From: Nitrosopumilaceae archaeon
GTDB taxonomy: Archaea; Thermoproteota; Nitrososphaeria; Nitrososphaerales; Nitrosopumilaceae
Reading direction: 5' to 3'
DNA: 31,017 nt
NCBI GenBank assembly: GCA_052389415.1
Contig: JBQTHX010000007.1
Location: 1 to 31,017 of the forward strand
Shown: positions 2,781-15,587 of the stretch, one piece after another
Position numbering within the stretch: the first letter of the stretch is position 1
Layout: every line of letters starts with the position of its first letter
Translations under genes and position numbers: made by a program
Notes under the pieces: model-generated
Databases searched by the model: none
What the model saw: the letters and a program-made list of their open reading frames with translations, nothing else
Told to the model about the DNA's origin: nothing

Positions 2781-3242
2781 TTGGCAAGTTACAAAAAACG
2801 ATACTCCAATGATAAATCCCTTGATTTTATTATACCACTAATTGTGTTATTATTTCTTGGCGTGGTTTACATTACATCTTCAAGAGCTAACGAAGGTTAT
2901 GTTAGTTTCATTCTGATAGGGATCGCAGCATTTGTAATGATCTACTGGACCAGAGTCCTGAAAAATATGACCAAAAATTCACAGCCGCAATTTACTCCAA
3001 AAGAAAGCGAGTCCAAAAACTGGGTTTACGATCTCATCAAGGGAGAAAATGAGATAGTCTTTGTTTCTGAAGTACCTGGACCAGAAGACATGGTAAGTGT
3101 AAGACTAATTGATGGAATTTTGTATATAAGAGGATCTGGTAGATTCTCAAAAGAGGTTCCAATCGAGGTTACTCCGGACATGGGAATTCATGATTTCAAA
3201 TACAGAAACGGAGTACTTACTCTAAGAATAAAAAAATTATAG
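2781..3242 (+). CDS. Hsp20/alpha-crystallin-like domain protein with two N-terminal TM helices
   Basis: C-terminal ACD features (EVPGPED.V.V, LYIRG, F.KEVP, YRNGVLTLRIKK); hydrophobic stretches at about residues 16-32 and 41-56. Confidence 0.8.
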   Translation: MASYKKRYSNDKSLDFIIPLIVLLFLGVVYITSSRANEGYVSFILIGIAAFVMIYWTRVLKNMTKNSQPQFTPKESESKNWVYDLIKGENEIVFVSEVPGPEDMVSVRLIDGILYIRGSGRFSKEVPIEVTPDMGIHDFKYRNGVLTLRIKKL

Positions 3243-4343
3243 GCTCTTTGCTAGTTCTAGCTTTTCTGGCAAATATTTATCAGTGATATTTGTAAGGCCA
3301 TATTTTGAGAAGGCTTCAAGCTCGGCCTTTCTTTTTAGTTTAAGGAAAACTTCTAGCTGAGTTTTCCAGTTTCCTTCTTGATAACGAGGATCTTTTTGCA
3401 GTTCATAGATTCTTTTGATGTCTGATTCGGTCATAGGTATGGTTGGAAGTTTGTATTTTTCAATATCTGTTGCCCATACACCAAGCCACTTTGCATCAGG
3501 TACTGTAAGCTCACGCAGATGAGCCGCATTGGCTGAACCAGATTTTATGACCATTGCTATGTGTTCCCCATAAACGTCACCATCAGCAAGAATGACTACT
3601 GGCAACCCCAACTCGGAGCTGAGCCTTTTGAGTAGATATCGCGTAGAACGTGGGGCTTGGCCTGCAGTATCAACTATGATTGCCTTGAATTTTTTGTGAA
3701 CTTTTTCTTCAACGAATCTTGTGAAAAGTCCACCCTTCTCAATCGCAATTACAAGCTCGGCATCAGTGTCTACAAGTTCTGCACTGCTAAGACTAGGACC
3801 TATTAAATATCCATCAGGATGATCTGACAAATTCATCCTTTTCCCTTCATACCCTGGTACAGTGTATTCAATTGTCAGATTACCAAAAACGCTGCTTCTT
3901 TCTTCTGGAAATACGTGAAAGTCTTCTCTTGCACGTGTAAGTATTGCTTCAAGATCAACTATTATGTTATCAGATTCTGGTTGATCCTCGAAATCTATTG
4001 CAAATGCCTGCGATGAATAATAAATGTCTCTAAGTGTAGAAGTCTTTCCTTCATTTACTAGTCTATTTACAAAGAATGCTAACCATGCAAGTTGTGTAAA
4101 AGAACGAAGCTGTGACATGTTCCTGGCGCTCCTCACTGCAGCTGCTTTTCCTAGGATGTACTGTCGCAGTTTCTTGTCATAAACAATATTACTAACAGAC
4201 CTACTTGGAATGGAGAATTGTGGAAACCTTCCGTTATTTAGATCATTGTATACAATGATACCTTGATTCTTAAGAAGAGAAAGTAGTTCCTGTTTTTTTG
4301 CTTCCACAGTTTTTGCTTGTTTAGATTTGTTCTTCAATTTCAC
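3237..4343 (-). CDS. top6A: DNA topoisomerase VI subunit A
   Basis: TLRDIYY catalytic Tyr motif; TOPRIM AIEK...DGDVYG; KAELEA. Confidence 0.97.
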   Translation of the reverse strand: MKLKNKSKQAKTVEAKKQELLSLLKNQGIIVYNDLNNGRFPQFSIPSRSVSNIVYDKKLRQYILGKAAAVRSARNMSQLRSFTQLAWLAFFVNRLVNEGKTSTLRDIYYSSQAFAIDFEDQPESDNIIVDLEAILTRAREDFHVFPEERSSVFGNLTIEYTVPGYEGKRMNLSDHPDGYLIGPSLSSAELVDTDAELVIAIEKGGLFTRFVEEKVHKKFKAIIVDTAGQAPRSTRYLLKRLSSELGLPVVILADGDVYGEHIAMVIKSGSANAAHLRELTVPDAKWLGVWATDIEKYKLPTIPMTESDIKRIYELQKDPRYQEGNWKTQLEVFLKLKRKAELEAFSKYGLTNITDKYLPEKLELAKSL

Positions 4344-6162
4344 TTCCCTTAGAAATTAGCTGTTTATAATTTGGTTCTTTCTTATTTCCTGAAAGTTCTG
4401 TAGTAAATTGAGCAATAAGTGGAACATACTTTGAGTAAAGGTTTGCTCGTTTTTTTGCCATGTCAGCCATTCCCTGTCTAGACATGTGAACTGCTAGTTT
4501 TCTTGCCAAGAATTGTAATGCATTTTTTAGCTCACGTTCTATTTCTTGTCTATCTGCTACATTCTCTTTGCCGACAGTTTTGTAGGGAATTCTAGTAGAA
4601 CAGATATGAGACACTATTACAAGTGGTGGTTCACCTTTGATCTTGTATCTACTCCAATCCATTTCGTTTACCACTTTTAAGACTACGTCACTTCCTTCGT
4701 CGTAAAGCAGGGGAATTCTATTGGCAAAGCGATAAACTTGTAGTCCTTTGGGAGGAATATCCCCTCCATATGCAATCCCCATCTCTACAATAAAGGGAAA
4801 TCCAGAGTATGCTGATGCGCTTCTTTGTATAACAGAAGCAAATTCTGGGTTGAAAAATTTCATAATACCTTTTGATAGCGGTTCTTCTCCCAGGGGAGCA
4901 AGGCAACTAGGATCCGGAGAGAGAAATTCTTCAAACTTCTGCAAAGAGTCAGATAATTTAACAAGGTCTTCGTTTGTCATACTTCCGATCCTTTTTTCTG
5001 GTTTAAATTTGGCAAATTCTGCAAACTTGTCCGCGGTTGTAGGACCAACTCTTTGGAATCTTTTCGTTAGAAAAGTATGCAGAGTATCCCCTGCCACCGT
5101 GTTAGCTAGTTGCTTGTAATATTGAGATTCTGGATCGAGTTCTATGGAATATGATTGAGAGTCTCCAAAATTCCAGTATGTAAGTTTTTTATTTGGAATA
5201 TCTAGATCATCGATTCTTATCTTGCTTAGTCTTTCAAAATCCATATCAAGAAAAGACATCATTGCTACAACAATTCGTACAGGCCTTGACAGTCCAGACC
5301 ATTTCTTTTGTGCTTTTTCTAAAATCATTTTTGAATTAGGATTCTTTTTTTGTAATCCCAGTTCACTTCTGACTTTGGCTATCATCTTGTTGTCAACTAC
5401 TGGAATTTGGTAATGTGTATCAACCATCATTCTCCTAATTGTCTCAACATCAATTCCATGAGGATGCGGTTTTATGATGGTAGGCGGTGGTGGCATCTCT
5501 TTTACAATTCTTGGATAATGGAATTTCTCTCCGTTTGGATCTTCAAAGGTAATTGATGCATAAGGAGTGATTAGAGATGTCTGGGCCACATAGTCACGAA
5601 TTTTTGTTCCTGCTTTTGAATAATCTCCTTCCAAAATAATACTAACCGAAAGACCTGTCTTGGCTGCTTCTTTTGTTGTGTGTTTCTGTATTATGGGTTT
5701 ATTTTTCTGGATGTCAAGTAACATAACAAATTCGTCTTGCGTCTTCCCATCCGCGCAACTTTTTACCGTAACAGGTTTGTTAGTTGTAATTTGACCATAA
5801 AGTATTGCCATTGTTGCTCCTAGTCCAAACATTCCCCTTGCTTGTTTGAGTCCAAACTTTGAACCATACAGAACAGTTCCAAATGCCAGTGGCACATGTT
5901 TTGGTTCAATTCCAGGTCCATTGTCTTTTACTGAAAGAATGTATGATTTTGGGTCTGGTTGTTCTAAATCCACCGCTTTTATTGAAAGATGGACATCTGG
6001 GAGGATGCCTTTTTGATCGCACGCATCAAGAGCGTTTTCAACGAATTCACGAACAGAGGTATATAGCGATCTTGTAGGATTACTAAATCCCGCTAGATCA
6101 CGGTTTCGATAGAAGAACTCACTTGGTGATATCTGACTAAAAGTTTCTTTAATCGAAGACAT
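4321..6162 (-). CDS. top6B: DNA topoisomerase VI subunit B (613 aa, with internal insertion)
   Basis: GHKL motifs EFVENALDA, DNGPG, GSKF, RGMFGLG; RFANRIPLLYD; start re-placed at ATG 6162 (MSSIKETFSQISPSEFF) because the longer ORF overlaps the KH gene extensively. Confidence 0.96.
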   Translation of the reverse strand: MSSIKETFSQISPSEFFYRNRDLAGFSNPTRSLYTSVREFVENALDACDQKGILPDVHLSIKAVDLEQPDPKSYILSVKDNGPGIEPKHVPLAFGTVLYGSKFGLKQARGMFGLGATMAILYGQITTNKPVTVKSCADGKTQDEFVMLLDIQKNKPIIQKHTTKEAAKTGLSVSIILEGDYSKAGTKIRDYVAQTSLITPYASITFEDPNGEKFHYPRIVKEMPPPPTIIKPHPHGIDVETIRRMMVDTHYQIPVVDNKMIAKVRSELGLQKKNPNSKMILEKAQKKWSGLSRPVRIVVAMMSFLDMDFERLSKIRIDDLDIPNKKLTYWNFGDSQSYSIELDPESQYYKQLANTVAGDTLHTFLTKRFQRVGPTTADKFAEFAKFKPEKRIGSMTNEDLVKLSDSLQKFEEFLSPDPSCLAPLGEEPLSKGIMKFFNPEFASVIQRSASAYSGFPFIVEMGIAYGGDIPPKGLQVYRFANRIPLLYDEGSDVVLKVVNEMDWSRYKIKGEPPLVIVSHICSTRIPYKTVGKENVADRQEIERELKNALQFLARKLAVHMSRQGMADMAKKRANLYSKYVPLIAQFTTELSGNKKEPNYKQLISKGSEIEEQI

Positions 6163-6721
6163 TTCCATTTTCCCATAGTTGCAATTTATCCTGTTTTTCC
6201 CTTCTTCTTGCTTCCTGCAAATCGTTATAGACAGCTCCGTGCATGCTACCTCTAGAAAGTGCAGATATTGCATCGACTGCATGTTTTAATTGACTACCCT
6301 CTCCAATTATTGATACAGTACGTCCATAAACCGAGATATTAGCACCGCTAAGCTCTTCTATGTTTTGTCTCACTCTACCACCTTCTCCAATTATTCTTCC
6401 TTTTATCCTTTCAATATTAGATGATGATTTTCCAGCGAATTCTCGCAAATCTATTACATGTAAGGCATTTTCACCTTGCAATAATCGCATTGCCTTTTCA
6501 GGAGAAAAGCCTCTTCCAATTGCCATCACAACTTCAACAGCTTTAAATGGCAACATATCTTCGATCTGTCCATTACCGCTTACCAGTATTTCCCCTGATT
6601 CGCTGTCAACTGTTATTTTTACAGAACATATTTTTTCTATCCTAGATTTTACTTTGCCTGTTTTACCAATAAGAACTCCAATCCGATCCAATGGAATGAG
6701 AACCGACTTGTCAAAACTCAA
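6149..6721 (-). CDS. KH-domain rRNA-processing protein (Dim2/Pno1/Krr1 family)
   Basis: IGVLIGKTG and KGRIIGEGG KH GxxG loops, AIGRGFSPEKA, G..HG.VY; usual position between rio1 and top6B. Confidence 0.92.
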   Translation of the reverse strand: MSFDKSVLIPLDRIGVLIGKTGKVKSRIEKICSVKITVDSESGEILVSGNGQIEDMLPFKAVEVVMAIGRGFSPEKAMRLLQGENALHVIDLREFAGKSSSNIERIKGRIIGEGGRVRQNIEELSGANISVYGRTVSIIGEGSQLKHAVDAISALSRGSMHGAVYNDLQEARRREKQDKLQLWENGNVFD

Positions 6722-7503
6722 TTTATTATCCTCGTTAATATATCAAATGGATTTTCCACTGTCAAACCTCTTTTAACAAAGAATCGTGATATATTCTTAA
6801 TATCTCTTTCAAGAAACTCTTTTGCATTTTTATGTTTTATATCTACTGCTGATCCTAGATCGAAAACAATTAGACCGTTTTCTGTTTTGAAAATATTGTA
6901 TTCTGAAAGATCGGCATGTACAAGTTTCGCTTTTTTATAAAGCTGACTGATGAGAAAAATTGCGTCGTTGTAGTCTTTTTCGTTAATTTCTGTTTCTATG
7001 AGAGTCTTGGCTGGTACTCCGTTCTTTCCTACAAATTCTAGTACCAAGATATTTTTAAGAATGTGTATTGGTTTGACAGAGGAAATACCATTCGCTACAC
7101 ACTGCGTCAGATTTCTGAATTCCTTTTGGGCCCAAAGTTCTACCATATTTCTTGTACCTTTTTTTATTCGAGAGAATCTTGGGTCGTCCACAAGGTATGG
7201 CCTTCGTTTTTTGAAGGTTGAGGCAGTAACTAGGTATATCTTAAGCGCAACGTCGTGTCCAGTGGGATCCACTGCCCAGTAAACCTTGGATTCTTTACCT
7301 GAACCAACAACTCCATTAACGTATGATATAACATTTGATTCTATTAGATTGGACAGAGCCATAATCGCAGTTTTATCTAAAACGTCATCGATAACCTTAT
7401 TTTTATCAAATATACTTTTTTCCGATCTTTCCTTTCTTTCTTTAGAAAGCAGATCACCATCAATACGCCTTGCTAATTTTTTTCCTAGTTCGTCTGACAA
7501 CAT
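6718..7503 (-). CDS. rio1: RIO1-family Ser/Thr kinase
   Basis: GSGKESKVY, VALKIY, WAQKEFRNL, HADLSEYNI, DLGSAV, FLERDIKNI. Confidence 0.94.
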   Translation of the reverse strand: MLSDELGKKLARRIDGDLLSKERKERSEKSIFDKNKVIDDVLDKTAIMALSNLIESNVISYVNGVVGSGKESKVYWAVDPTGHDVALKIYLVTASTFKKRRPYLVDDPRFSRIKKGTRNMVELWAQKEFRNLTQCVANGISSVKPIHILKNILVLEFVGKNGVPAKTLIETEINEKDYNDAIFLISQLYKKAKLVHADLSEYNIFKTENGLIVFDLGSAVDIKHKNAKEFLERDIKNISRFFVKRGLTVENPFDILTRIIN

Positions 7504-7543
7504 TTAAGATTTAAAATACTAGGTAAAATCGCTTGCGGGAAAA

Positions 7544-7855
7544 TCAAAAGTTCTTTGGGAGATGCCCATTCTCTTTTAACCAATCAACTTGCGATAATGT
7601 GTATCTCCAAGTAATATCTCCTCTATCATCTGATTTGAAATCCCAGGGAGCAAGAGTAACCACATCATTATCACGGATCCAAATTTTTCGTTTTAATTTT
7701 CCACGAATTCTGCCCATACGAGTTTTATCATCAGTGCATTTTACTAAAATGTGATCACTCCCCAAAAGTTTGATCACTCTACCAAGCAGCTCTCCCTCTC
7801 CTGGCAATTTCATTTCTTTTAGTTCACTTTCGTTTAGTACCTTTCGCTTTCCCAT
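7544..7855 (-). CDS. eif1A: translation initiation factor aIF-1A
   Basis: V.KLLG, RIRGKLKRKIWIR..DVV, PWDF, RGDI.WRY; ATG at 7855 preferred over TTG at 7864. Confidence 0.95.
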   Translation of the reverse strand: MGKRKVLNESELKEMKLPGEGELLGRVIKLLGSDHILVKCTDDKTRMGRIRGKLKRKIWIRDNDVVTLAPWDFKSDDRGDITWRYTLSQVDWLKENGHLPKNF

Positions 7856-7901
7856 GTTGCTCAAAAATTATTCCCGACTGAACACATATAATTGTGCTGT
7901 T

Positions 7902-8198
7902 TTAGAATTTGAAAACTAGAAGAAATGGAATTCCTTCTATTTCTTTAACTCCCTTTGTTGATCCGATTCCAAGATTTAATGATAATGAAATTGTTTCTTT
8001 TCCAACCAGATTAATGATAGCATATTTTTTTAAAAGTTCTTCAGCCTCAGACTGTTCGACAAAACGATCTGCAAAATAACTTTTACTTATGGTCATAGAA
8101 AAATCATCTTTTTTAATAGTTCTACCTACAAGTTTCGCATCACAAATATTTAACATAAGATTTTGTTGATAGTTTATTGTTTTAACAGCAAATGACAT
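7902..8198 (-). CDS. DUF424 family protein
   Basis: ICD..LVG, ISKSYF, IINLVG, I.GIP pattern; usual neighbour of aIF-2beta. Confidence 0.85.
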   Translation of the reverse strand: MSFAVKTINYQQNLMLNICDAKLVGRTIKKDDFSMTISKSYFADRFVEQSEAEELLKKYAIINLVGKETISLSLNLGIGSTKGVKEIEGIPFLLVFKF

Positions 8199-8618
8199 CT
8201 ACGCATACGTACCCTTGAGTGACGATTTTGCTCCACATGCCTCACAAACAAGAAAAGTAAATCTGTTGGATTTTTCTGCTCTCGTATCTGGACTCTTGCA
8301 AGCAGGGCATTCCAAGTATTCTTTTACATACCTATTTAGCAATGATGTGAAATCTTGTGGATCTCTCTTTCCTACAAAGACGGCTTTGTCACCTGCTAAT
8401 TGAGCGGGTGCGGCAAATTCTTTTGAAAGGTATTGTAAAACCTTGTCGGGATCTCTTCTTAGGATCTTTGGAAATTCAGCAAAGTTACGAAAGAAGGTTC
8501 TGTTTCCTTGCCACATAATATCAACGGCAGGAAGTTCAAATCTAGAGCCTGAACCCTTATTTTCCGAAATCTTATCTTGAATTTTCTTTAAGAGTTTCTC
8601 ATATTCTGAATTTACCAA
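8199..8618 (-). CDS. eif2b: translation initiation factor aIF-2 beta subunit
   Basis: RFELP, T.FRNF, L.RDP, YV.EY..CPACKSPDT...CEACGA zinc ribbon. Confidence 0.95.
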   Translation of the reverse strand: MVNSEYEKLLKKIQDKISENKGSGSRFELPAVDIMWQGNRTFFRNFAEFPKILRRDPDKVLQYLSKEFAAPAQLAGDKAVFVGKRDPQDFTSLLNRYVKEYLECPACKSPDTRAEKSNRFTFLVCEACGAKSSLKGTYA

Positions 8619-9081: not shown

Positions 9082-9576
9082 TTGGCAAAAAAGCGAGGCA
9101 TTGTCCTTACAATAGCAATACTTGCAGCTATTACAGCAGCAAGTTTCACCATATGGTTCATTCCTCAAACCGAGGATTCTAGTTTTGTCATTTTGGATTT
9201 CGAATCCCATCTTAAGAGCATACAAGCACGACAAAAAATCATTGCTGAGGAAATTGAGACTGATTTTCAGGGAATGCAAGCTGGGACAGTTACTCCGGAT
9301 GATTTTATGATAAGAGCAAAAGCTTCAACCTCACAAATTAATGCATTGATAATAGAATTAGTAGAAAGCAAGGCTCCCACTGAGTGGCATGAGAGCTATC
9401 TAAACTTTGGAGAATCTCTAAAAAGTTACAACAACTACCTGTTGGAAACAATAGTAGTAGCAGATAAAATTAAGGAAGGCAAGACAGATGAGATTAAGGA
9501 AAACCTTGAGAGAATAGGTGCTTTAGAAAAGGAATCAGAATCCTTTGCTCTCAAATCAGATGAGACAAAACCATAA
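9082..9576 (+). CDS. membrane-anchored or secreted helical hypothetical protein
   Basis: Basic N-terminus and hydrophobic helix (MAKKRGIVLTIAILAAITAASFTIWF) followed by acidic amphipathic helices. Confidence 0.8.
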   Translation: MAKKRGIVLTIAILAAITAASFTIWFIPQTEDSSFVILDFESHLKSIQARQKIIAEEIETDFQGMQAGTVTPDDFMIRAKASTSQINALIIELVESKAPTEWHESYLNFGESLKSYNNYLLETIVVADKIKEGKTDEIKENLERIGALEKESESFALKSDETKP

Positions 9577-9680
9577 GATTACGACTGTTATTTGTAAGTC
9601 AAAATTATTGATGACAGTATTTCCAGTCTAGAACTTGGTAAATTAATTAAGGGATTATGCATATTTAATATCATTAAATA

Positions 9681-10837: not shown

Positions 10838-11605
10838 TTGAATCTTTCTGGTCTCTACAGTATTTATTCAAACAAACTTGAAAAAGAGATTAAAAATGAA
10901 AACCTACCAAATCACATAGCCATAATATTGGATGGGAATCGCAGGTGGGCAAAACGAAATCTTGTTGTAAAGGAAAATGGCCATTTTCATGGAGCAGATA
11001 CTGTTGAGAAATTACTTGATTGGTGTGAAGAACTAGGAATAAAAATAATAACTCTCTATGTATTATCAGCCGAGAATTTAGCTCGTGATGACGAGGAACT
11101 ACACTATCTTTATGCGTTAATCAAAGAGAGATTGGAAAAGCTCTACAATGATCCCAGGATTCATAGAAACAAAATGAGAATAAAAGCAATTGGCCGTGTT
11201 GAGCTTCTTCCACACTCTTTAAAAGAGATCCTGAAAAAATTGGAGGATGTAACCAAAGATTATGATGGGCATTATCTAAATGTTGCAATTGCTTATGGGG
11301 GTCAAAATGAGTTAGTTGATGCAGTTAAGAAAATTGCTACAAAGATTAAGGATGGTTCGCTCACTATAGATTCGATAGACAAGGAAGTAATAGAATCATC
11401 TTTGTATACTTCACATCTACCACAATCTTCCCCTGACATGATACTGAGAACATCTGGTGAGAAGAGATTAAGTGGTTTTTTAATTTGGCAAAGCGCGTAT
11501 AGCGAATTGGTATTTATGGATATTTTCTGGCCAGAATTTAGAAAAATAGATCTTATGCGTGCCATTAGGACATTCCAAAAAAGAGCACGAAGGCTTGGCA
11601 AGTAA
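10838..11605 (+). CDS. uppS: cis-polyprenyl diphosphate synthase (UppS family)
   Basis: PNHIAIILDGNRRWA, LSAEN, AYGG, RTSGEKRLSGFLIWQSAYSEL, C-terminal RRLG. Confidence 0.96.
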   Translation: MNLSGLYSIYSNKLEKEIKNENLPNHIAIILDGNRRWAKRNLVVKENGHFHGADTVEKLLDWCEELGIKIITLYVLSAENLARDDEELHYLYALIKERLEKLYNDPRIHRNKMRIKAIGRVELLPHSLKEILKKLEDVTKDYDGHYLNVAIAYGGQNELVDAVKKIATKIKDGSLTIDSIDKEVIESSLYTSHLPQSSPDMILRTSGEKRLSGFLIWQSAYSELVFMDIFWPEFRKIDLMRAIRTFQKRARRLGK

Positions 11606-13495: not shown

Positions 13496-14494
13496 TTATC
13501 GTCTATCAATTATGTCATCAACGCCAGGACCAGTGCCTATAATAGTTACAGGAACTTTGAGTTGATCCTCTATTGTTTTGATAAAGAGTTTTGCTGGCGA
13601 ACTAAGATCATCAAATGAACTCATGTTAGAACATTCCGGATAAAGAACATCAAGTTTTGTGATTGCTACCTGTGTTGCACTGTTTAACATAATTGCACGT
13701 TTCGCAAGGTCAAAATCAAACTCAGCCGCTCTTCTTGCACGTCCTGTAACGGTTCCTACTTCTTGCCAGCCCTTTACTTTAGTCTGTTCCACCGATAGTT
13801 CGTTTTTCAGAGGACCTGTTCCCACTCTAGTTACGTAAGATTTGAAAACTACCATTACATCTGTTACTTTTGTTGGTCCAAGTCCAATGTCAGAACATAT
13901 TCCAGAAGCAGTAACGTCTTTTGAGGTTACATACGGATATGTCCCATGCCATAAAGAAAGAAAAGTTCCCTGAGTTCCTTCAACTAGGACGTTTTCGTTT
14001 CTTTCTAATGCAAAATTGATAGAGTTTGGAACATCTTCAAGATAAAGGGCTAGTGAATCAATGTCTTTTGCAAGCTTTAACGTTCTCATTGCTCTGTCTG
14101 CATTAGCAGGACCTGTACCTGAACCTGTACTACCTATTGAATCCTTTAGTCTTCCTTGAGAATCTGCGTTTCTATGTGACTCCTCAATTATACCACATTG
14201 GGAATCTACAAAAGTCCTGTCAGAAACGCCAAATTCCTCAATTTCCTTCAAAAGTACTTCTGGACTTACTACAACCCCCGGTCCAATTAATAGCCGAACA
14301 TTTTTGTTCAAAAATGCACTTGGGAGCATTCTAACTTTGTATTTTTTATTTTCGTATTCTATGGTATGTCCAGCGTTAGGGCCTGCACCACCACGAACTG
14401 CGATTGTTGGATTATCCTTCATCGCAAGATATGAAATTATTTTTCCTTTTCCTTCATCTCCAAAAAATCCACCAACTACTACCAATGAAGGCAT
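13496..14494 (-). CDS. purA: adenylosuccinate synthetase (short archaeal type)
   Basis: GGFFGDEGKGK, GPNAGHT, IGSTGSGTGPA, EGTQG, GTYPYVTS, GTVTGR.RR, TKLD; start at ATG 14494 (MPSLVVVG). Confidence 0.96.
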   Translation of the reverse strand: MPSLVVVGGFFGDEGKGKIISYLAMKDNPTIAVRGGAGPNAGHTIEYENKKYKVRMLPSAFLNKNVRLLIGPGVVVSPEVLLKEIEEFGVSDRTFVDSQCGIIEESHRNADSQGRLKDSIGSTGSGTGPANADRAMRTLKLAKDIDSLALYLEDVPNSINFALERNENVLVEGTQGTFLSLWHGTYPYVTSKDVTASGICSDIGLGPTKVTDVMVVFKSYVTRVGTGPLKNELSVEQTKVKGWQEVGTVTGRARRAAEFDFDLAKRAIMLNSATQVAITKLDVLYPECSNMSSFDDLSSPAKLFIKTIEDQLKVPVTIIGTGPGVDDIIDRR

Positions 14495-14572
14495 ACTAGA
14501 CCTCAAAGCTGGCACATATTTAAGCCAAATTGCAGCAATACAATTTTAACATAGTAACCAAGTGCCAACTCT

Positions 14573-15034
14573 ATGTCAGAACCAAACTATGCTGGAAACA
14601 TAATAGTCTCACTAGCAAGCCTTCCAGACTTTCTAAGAAAACCTATATTGAAAAAAAGACTGATGGAATTTTTTTCAATGACTCTAGCAGACAAGGACGA
14701 AGTGATTAACAATGCATTAGCCGCTGGACCAACTATTCCATTTGATAATTTTGCAAGGCTATTCAAGACATGGCTTGAAATATTGAGTAGTCTTTCAGAA
14801 GAAAATAGAACAGCCATGTTTTCAGGATACATGACAGCTATTCTAAAAAATCCACAAAAACTTGTTTCATTTAATCTAGATGGGATTTTAGAAATTTATT
14901 TATCCTTAACTCAAGAACAAAAATTTACGATTTCTAACTCCGTCAAGAAATTATTAACTTCATTAGATGAAAAAAGTAAGAGGACATTATATCTCATAAT
15001 ACCAGATAGGGCTAAAAGAGAGTTTGTAGCCTAG
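14573..15034 (+). CDS. hypothetical alpha-helical protein
   Basis: 153-aa protein-like ORF divergent from purA. Confidence 0.8.
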   Translation: MSEPNYAGNIIVSLASLPDFLRKPILKKRLMEFFSMTLADKDEVINNALAAGPTIPFDNFARLFKTWLEILSSLSEENRTAMFSGYMTAILKNPQKLVSFNLDGILEIYLSLTQEQKFTISNSVKKLLTSLDEKSKRTLYLIIPDRAKREFVA

Positions 15035-15306
15035 GTAGGTTTATCAGGTTTTCGCTGATTTTCATCGGCATAATTTATTACATTTCCATCAGGAGTCATT
15101 ACACCAACAAAGACTTTTTCATACTTTTTGAGGACTTTTCTATGATCTGCAAGTGACATGTCAAGTTTCATCTCATTCATTACCATAATTCTATAGTTTT
15201 TCCATTCATTCCAGCACATATTGCAACACGGATAATTTGCTGCAATTGGATCAAGCTCGTCTGTATCTGGAATTTCCTTTCTACATTTAGTACATATTCT
15301 TTCCAT
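15031..15306 (-). CDS. YggX-like Fe(II)-trafficking/oxidative damage protection protein
   Basis: CW.EW.....M.MNE.KLD......RK.L......F matches the YggX consensus W..W....TM.INE..L......R..L. Confidence 0.72.
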   Translation of the reverse strand: MERICTKCRKEIPDTDELDPIAANYPCCNMCWNEWKNYRIMVMNEMKLDMSLADHRKVLKKYEKVFVGVMTPDGNVINYADENQRKPDKPT

Positions 15307-15380
15307 AGTAAACCCAATTAGGCGTAGTCATTTAATCTTTTTTTAAGAAAGGATATTACAATGCAGAACGAAATAGAGAC

Positions 15381-15587
15381 ATGAAGATAAAGTGTCCCAA
15401 GTGCAACGGAATTGCAGAACTTGCTGATGATTTTTCGTTTGTCAGATGCGATCCTTGTTCCTTGGATATGACATATGGAGAATATGTGAAGATCATAGCA
15501 TACAAAGACAGCACATATTCTGACATTTTAGGTGATTATGCCAGTAGCACAGAAGGAACAAAAGCCGGAACTCTTGACGATTGGTAG
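15381..15587 (+). CDS. small zinc-ribbon protein (68 aa)
   Basis: CPKC...CDPC; ATG start; C-terminal TLDDW. Confidence 0.8.
   Translation: MKIKCPKCNGIAELADDFSFVRCDPCSLDMTYGEYVKIIAYKDSTYSDILGDYASSTEGTKAGTLDDW

Follow-up and report, generated by a model that had tools for sequence, protein, structure and literature searches.

In most archaea, topoisomerase VI serves as the main type II topoisomerase, and the meiotic Spo11 machinery descends from it. Recent cryo-electron microscopy (cryo-EM) work has reportedly found that the outer face of its B subunit, Top6B, including the H2TH element, reads DNA bends and crossings. Escherichia coli GyrB carries a lineage-specific accessory insert of ~170 residues. 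Here we describe an inserted domain in the Top6B of a Nitrosopumilaceae archaeon, encoded at 5089..5424 on the minus strand of a 31,017-nucleotide stretch of its genome (assembly GCA_052389415.1, contig JBQTHX010000007.1, positions 1 to 31,017), which is referred to as the window. Top6B with this insert is a new variant of a known enzyme. A literature search returned no published description of the insert, although supplementary alignments, which lie outside the text covered by that search, may show it.

Like the GyrB insert, the one described here is a folded domain at a domain boundary of an ATPase subunit, occurs in one lineage, and leaves the core intact; unlike it, it has a different host domain, fold, and lineage, and we found no sequence relation between the two. 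As in the Top6B proteins of Saccharolobus shibatae (2zbk_B, 1mu5) and Methanosarcina mazei (2q2e_B, 9o8p), the GHKL domain, the H2TH, and the transducer are present, but the window protein differs from both in having a domain of its own, ~108 residues long, between the helix that follows the GHKL domain and the H2TH element. In M. mazei Top6B, an extra domain is located at the C-terminus instead, according to a published description (PMC11302465).

An inserted domain between the ATPase and H2TH elements

The first-pass annotation, made from the letters of the window alone, had claimed an insertion of ~110 residues in Top6B at 5089-5424, at a site where Sulfolobus-type proteins have only a few residues. 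We read Top6B from the ATG at 6168 (P0001, 615 residues), and the stop-free minus-strand translation of the claimed interval reproduced the 112 residues that had been quoted, corresponding to residues 249-360 of P0001 (the insert, P0002). Both flanks, PHPHGIDVETIRRMM and TLHTFLTKRFQRVG, were present, and the solved proteins have 1-4 residues at the site. The phmmer alignment to S. shibatae Top6B (2zbk_B) breaks at this point, with P0001 5-247 matching residues 2-244 and P0001 356-608 matching residues 246-504. In M. mazei Top6B (2q2e_B), residues 253 and 258 are the partners of P0001 251 and 363, respectively. Altogether, ~108 residues of P0001 had no counterpart in either protein.

Two insert-free close relatives (L031 and L032) read ...VEFMRRMIRQSKEPYLVKYMSKRFHRVG, where the window protein reads ...VETIRRMM, then the insert, and then GDTLHTFLTKRFQRVG. 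Because these relatives share the helix at residues 241-251 (VETIRRMM...; 5416..5448, minus strand, as for all features below), which was also predicted as a helix by AlphaFold2 (AF2), the helix directly before the insertion point is native and the insert lies between it and the H2TH element. An in-frame insert of 106-113 residues was found in all 61 Top6B sequences of our alignment (A1), which excludes chance or an assembly artefact. Translation, PDB alignment, A1, and the AF2 models were all used to delimit the domain.

An AF2 model of the insert alone, built with 61 sequences, had a predicted local distance difference test score (pLDDT) of 84.8 and a predicted template modelling score (pTM) of 0.76, and the full-length model showed the same secondary structure. 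In these models, helix 1 (residues 260-270; 5359..5391) is followed by helix 2 (279-292; 5293..5334), which ends at W290, and by helix 3 (295-307) with a short additional helix (311-314; together 5227..5286) that aligns with 'box I' of integrases. A three-stranded antiparallel sheet comes next (317-323, IRIDDLD; 328-333; 338-343; 5140..5220), and a C-terminal helix (349-359, or 349-357 in the model of the insert alone; YYKQLANTV; 5092..5124) closes the domain. The insert is thus predicted to be an independently folding alpha/beta domain, in which four helices come first, the sheet follows, and a last helix closes the fold.

Insert sequences in A1 were 19-91% identical to that of the window. 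W290 was the sole invariant residue within the insert, while L270, A286, L293, R295, V297, L307, L314, K316, D323, Y331, and L354 were conserved in at least 90% of sequences. Lys or Arg occupied 12 positions (265, 267, 274, 285, 288, 289, 295, 298, 316, 318, 328, and 352) in at least 80% of sequences. Within the insert, the nonsynonymous rate (dN) was 0.13-0.33, compared to a synonymous rate (dS) above 1.8 or saturated; as synonymous sites were saturated, comparison with the flanks was limited to dN. In three families of the order to which the window belongs, purifying selection has maintained the insert.

The rest of Top6B around the insert is intact. The gene (4321..6168, stop codon included) encodes a protein with Pfam matches to Topo-VIb_trans (PF09239, residues 418-573, E = 9.6e-57) and HATPase_c (E = 8.2e-08), and phmmer aligned it end to end with the solved Top6B proteins of S. 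shibatae (E = 1.6e-131) and M. mazei (E = 1.3e-78). The full-length AF2 model superposed on the S. shibatae chains 1mu5 (template modelling score TMt 0.88) and 2zbk_B (TMt 0.81). The GHKL (Bergerat) ATPase domain, placed by HATPase_c and PDB alignment, covers residues about 1-235 (5464..6168), and its motifs ENALDA, DNGPG, and GMFGLG were invariant across A1, as was FQRxG in the H2TH element (residues about 361-425; 4894..5088), which aligns with the H2TH of 1mu5, 2zbk_B, and 2q2e_B. The transducer domain and C-terminal helices (residues about 426-615; 4324..4893) correspond to PF09239. P0001 thus combines every feature expected of Top6B: a GHKL fold with its motifs, an H2TH element, a transducer, and an adjacent gene for the Top6A partner (3237..4343; TOP6A-Spo11_Toprim, E = 2.9e-51; TP6A_N, E = 3.5e-15).

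Top6A starts with a GTG at 4343 and overlaps the end of Top6B by ~20 bases, so the two genes probably form one operon. Read as its longest open reading frame (ORF; 4321-6282), Top6B would run ~130 bases into the 3' end of the KH-domain gene upstream; since homologues begin near MSSxKE, translation probably starts at the ATG at 6168 or 6162 instead. Upstream of top6B on the same strand (6149-8618) is a series of genes of translation and ribosome biogenesis, encoding the KH-domain protein, a RIO kinase, eIF1A, a DUF424 protein, and an eIF2-beta/eIF5-type protein.

Distribution and gain of the insert

Region 235-370 of P0001 matched 1290 database proteins at E <= 0.001. The 120 matches listed were all Top6B, with names referring to Nitrosopumilales, Nitrosotalea, and Thaumarchaeota. 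In a sample of 301 genomes from the phylum, all 43 other genomes of the window's own family (f1) matched, 42 in one piece and one (G239) split over two contigs. No insert-crossing match was found in the 257 genomes of other families in this sample; their Top6B matched in at least two pieces (about 1-250 and 360-610), the exceptions being two genomes that each gave one partial match and four in which nothing matched.

A sample of the class was searched with P0137, a distant insert-bearing full-length Top6B. All 145 f1 genomes matched (143 of 143 without the unpublished genomes G389 and G488), 140 of them as a single uninterrupted match, and G239, G374, G406, G410, and G465 showed 2-3 matches each. 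The order of the window also includes families f49, f52, and f50. Matches were obtained in 7/7 genomes of f49 and 3/3 of f52, while all 30 genomes of f50 matched weakly (E 1e-36 to 1e-45). Families f51 and f53-f61 gave two-piece matches in nearly every genome (three pieces in G345, no match in G360). We extracted insert-free genes from f50, f51, and f56, together with ten genes from other families of the phylum; the site was 5 residues long in 12 of the extracted genes and 7 in three from f50. The sister families f50 and f51 were without the insert, and when their insert-free Top6B and that of f56 were searched for a relocated copy with a hidden Markov model (HMM) of the insert, nothing scored above 3.7 bits.

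When the insert columns were left out of the Top6B tree, a single gain was enough to account for the pattern (support 59), and f1, f49, f52, and f50 formed a clade (Shimodaira-Hasegawa-like approximate likelihood ratio test, SH-aLRT, 95). The f50 stem branch was very long (2.07 changes per site), so loss of the insert in f50 and its original absence both fit the tree. The insert is a clean molecular marker for three related families.

Top6B was strongly divergent in all 30 sampled f50 genomes (1.5-3.9 Mb; extracted genes L033, L035, and L039 from G395, G428, and G377), with open frames of 654-995 residues. It matched P0137 more weakly than did the Top6B of more distant families, for which E-values were 1e-70 to 1e-95.

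Proposed function and possible origin

We propose that the insert is a lineage-specific accessory lobe of Top6B that binds DNA arms, a reading to which we assign a probability of about 0.45. The data above show that the insert exists, where it lies, how it is distributed and conserved, and how it is predicted to fold. We infer DNA binding, and any effect on enzyme activity, from the position of the insert 5-10 residues upstream of DNA-touching H2TH residues and from its twelve conserved basic positions. In M. mazei topoisomerase VI, the H2TH residues R263, K268, and K308 contact bent DNA arms and are required for relaxation, according to a cryo-EM study (PMC13040014). The counterpart of M. mazei K268 is P0001 R373, which does not vary in A1, and K369 adjoins the position of M. 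mazei R263. Under this proposal, the domain would have entered Top6B once, at the junction of the post-GHKL helix and the H2TH element, and would enlarge the outer DNA-binding surface of the subunit. It may help to hold or sense DNA arms or crossings, and could help to couple DNA binding to ATPase activity and strand passage.

Several observations weigh against this proposal. Eight insert positions are conserved as acidic, and the net charge is small, at +3 for the insert of the window, with a median of +2 and extremes of -3 and +10. In addition, dN in the insert was 2-2.7 times that of the flanking 100 codons, indicating that constraint on the insert is weaker than on the enzyme core. Finally, because f50 belongs to the same order and is without the insert, the domain is not indispensable for a working Top6B lineage.

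The first-pass annotation had also suggested an origin, in which the insert is a captured, inactive DNA-binding module from a tyrosine recombinase or type IB topoisomerase. Such an origin, from the degenerate N-terminal lobe of a catalytic domain, is compatible with a DNA-arm-binding function, since it concerns origin only. The second half of the insert, on which the suggestion was based (RPVRIVV...YYKQL), was present at residues 295-354, although its span of 5107-5286 is slightly narrower than the 'about 5095-5286' originally given. The N-terminal lobes of topoisomerase IB and tyrosine recombinases were the best structural neighbours that we found for the insert. The AF2 models suggest the same succession of elements as in these lobes (2h7g, 2h7f, and 1a41 of variola/vaccinia topoisomerase; XerA, 5hxy; XerD, 1a0p), with two helices, then three strands, then a helix, and a hydrophobic helix resembling 'box I' is followed by [IV]R[IV].D[IV]D.

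A Foldseek search of the PDB with the AF2 model returned members of this superfamily in 10 of the 50 matches listed, all over the same part of the insert (1a41, 5hxy, 6z01, 5dcf, 5jjv, 4a8e, 8a0a, 5vfz, and 1a0p). In BFVD, an integrase (TMq 0.41) and a DNA_BRE_C protein (TMq 0.38) had the highest TMq among the 50 matches listed. However, the best E-values were 0.39 in the PDB and 0.051 in BFVD, and nothing reached E <= 0.001. In ESM-Atlas, the neighbours beyond Top6B were integrase and telomere-resolvase clusters (score 0.79), and with Top6B families excluded, the ten best named clusters all belonged to the integrase clan, including PF00589 and PF16684. By the guidance of this language-model tool, scores under 0.9 should be taken as leads only, and a third of shuffled proteins also obtain ten of ten clusters in one clan.

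Profile comparisons gave a similar picture. Compared by hhalign with a set of 25 integrase catalytic domains taken from related genomes, the insert scored 19.6 (P 0.017-0.019) in the expected register, with RIVVAMMSFLDMDFERLSKIRIDDLD aligned to the integrase 'box I', and only 1 of 100 column shuffles equalled this score. The control, however, did equally well, as the unrelated Top6B transducer obtained a score of 19.2 (P 0.022) with the insert profile. Against thaumarchaeal topoisomerase IB, P was 0.28 and 38 of 100 shuffles did as well, with the local alignment again falling on the equivalent LRxEH...FDFLGKDS stretch. Among the ORFs of the window's own genome, an integrase on contig C29 ranked 8th of 5,481 with the insert HMM (E 3.5), in the same register; a second integrase ranked 156th, and two others and topoisomerase IB were not among the 221 ORFs reported. 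None of 25 insert sequences matched PF00589 or PF01028 at E <= 10, and neither did P0002 alone. A single short motif, L..L..[IV]R[IV].D[IV]D, underlies all of these sequence signals, and AF2 may also have drawn on it. Because the methods share this motif, their results do not count as independent evidence.

Under this origin, the insert would amount to just half of a catalytic domain. The position aligned with Arg I is taken by D310, where at least 80% of sequences have an acidic residue, and lysine is not conserved in the turn between strands 2 and 3 (333-339), in agreement with the earlier suggestion that the catalytic Arg and Lys had been lost. The H2TH element follows the insert directly, leaving no segment for Arg II, His/Trp, or the Tyr nucleophile. 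The insert is not catalytic. Overall, the insertion itself held up, whereas the recombinase and topoisomerase IB resemblance, although consistent across methods, was never significant. With every score below a meaningful level, the capture of a module from a DNA-breaking enzyme is treated here as a hypothesis, and we regard true homology as tentative, the less probable of the two outcomes.

A fuller chimeric history, in which Top6B once captured the N-terminal half of a recombinase or topoisomerase IB, lost catalysis (Arg to Asp), and kept the DNA-gripping lobe next to the H2TH element, is somewhat more doubtful still. In that case, the source could be an integrase from a mobile element, of which these genomes commonly carry some. 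The window's genome contains possible donors in the form of four integrase matches and one topoisomerase IB. If such an origin were true, it would be a rare example of a defunct part of one DNA-breaking enzyme being put to use in a different one.

The topoisomerase IB of this genome is of the eukaryote type (C30:86422-87108, L084; PF01028, E = 1e-75; 525-residue frame). A search of 31 genomes, comprising that of the window and 30 further members of its family, detected it in 28 (in the former and in 27 of the latter), and the three genomes without a match are 73-95% complete. Tyrosine integrases were patchy, occurring in 26 of 41 genomes.

Searches for other relatives of the insert were negative. 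Pfam gave nothing significant for P0002, with only a sub-threshold phage tail match (E 0.042), and across 25 insert members no Pfam family recurred in more than 2. Sequence searches of the PDB, with the single sequence or a profile, gave only chance-level matches (for example PSB27, MazE, and a spore protein; E >= 0.2), and the profile search with the insert found no recombinase. Among 1.84 billion representative proteins, HMMER found 20 matches, none of which was a stand-alone or differently fused insert; they comprised Top6B fragments, the distant full-length P0137, two PKD-repeat proteins, and two giant low-complexity proteins. A second homologue search with P0137 as the query returned 5 proteins. 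The insert HMM identified Top6B alone among the 5,481 six-frame ORFs of its own genome, with no paralogue or donor.

Two leads were rejected on closer comparison. The two PKD-repeat surface proteins matched residues 69-110 of the insert through YWNFGD (E 2.5e-06 and 2.4e-05). A PKD domain is a beta sandwich of ~85 residues with WxFGDG, while the insert model has three strands only, and the mimicking sequence, LTYWNFGDSQS (residues about 323-343; window 5140-5200), is confined to f1 and not conserved in f49 or f52. On contig C29, an 86-residue ORF (9410-9667; E 0.003) and a 61-residue ORF (11378-11560; E 0.86) matched insert helices 1-2 only, and their hhalign P values (3.6e-4 and 2.7e-3) fail correction for selection among 5,481 ORFs.

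Contig C29 (27.6 kb) holds 4 of the 13 best insert-HMM matches of the whole genome. Outside the window, it carries an island of ~10 kb (L120, about 5.3-15.6 kb) between guaA and pterin genes, in which a tyrosine integrase (14440-15570) is accompanied by mostly unassignable ORFs. Given this content, the island is probably an integrated mobile element.

Other explanations and significance

The main rival to DNA-arm binding on function is a regulatory or partner-binding role, in which the insert would be a protein-protein interaction module of unrelated origin, acting for example in Top6B dimerisation (the ATP gate) or binding a lineage-specific partner. Its helix-sheet-helix arrangement would then be no more than a common one. 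The mildly positive charge and conserved acidic positions fit such a module, as does the failure of any known fold to match convincingly. However, the gene context (Top6A, KH, RIO kinase, and eIF1A) indicates no partner, and the twelve conserved basic positions count against it. We consider this role unlikely.

Far less probable is that a surface linker has simply expanded, yielding an insert that is tolerated but has no function. Such an expansion would suit both the elevated dN relative to the flanks and the absence of the insert from one family of the order, f50. It is difficult to reconcile with a confidently predicted fold, with a length of 106-113 residues kept down to 19% identity alongside invariant W290 and the eleven positions conserved in at least 90% of sequences, and with retention of the insert in every sampled genome of f1, f49, and f52.

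Least probable of all, to the point that we set it aside, is that the insert is what is left of an intein or of another selfish element, or is a duplicate of the neighbouring H2TH element: a domain boundary in a replication-related enzyme is a typical place for an intein, but the insert is predicted to fold as one small domain. As the first-pass annotation had noted, intein termini are absent; the first residue of the insert is V/T/I and its last is G, with D/E next, the junctions falling between RRMM and VDT and between VAG and DTL, with neither a Cys/Ser start nor a His-Asn plus Cys/Ser/Thr end. Pfam searches with P0001, P0002, and 25 members gave no match of the insert to Hint, LAGLIDADG, or other endonuclease families. 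Duplicated H2TH repeats, raised earlier as an alternative fold, had no profile similarity to the insert (hhalign P 0.67, score 8.0, 1 aligned column).

Ammonia-oxidising archaea are among the most abundant groups of microbes on Earth. The extra domain sits at the spot where Top6B reads DNA, which suggests that the enzyme of these archaea handles DNA arms differently. Top6B with the insert is a natural gain-of-domain variant for testing how contacts between Top6B and DNA control ATPase activity and strand passage.
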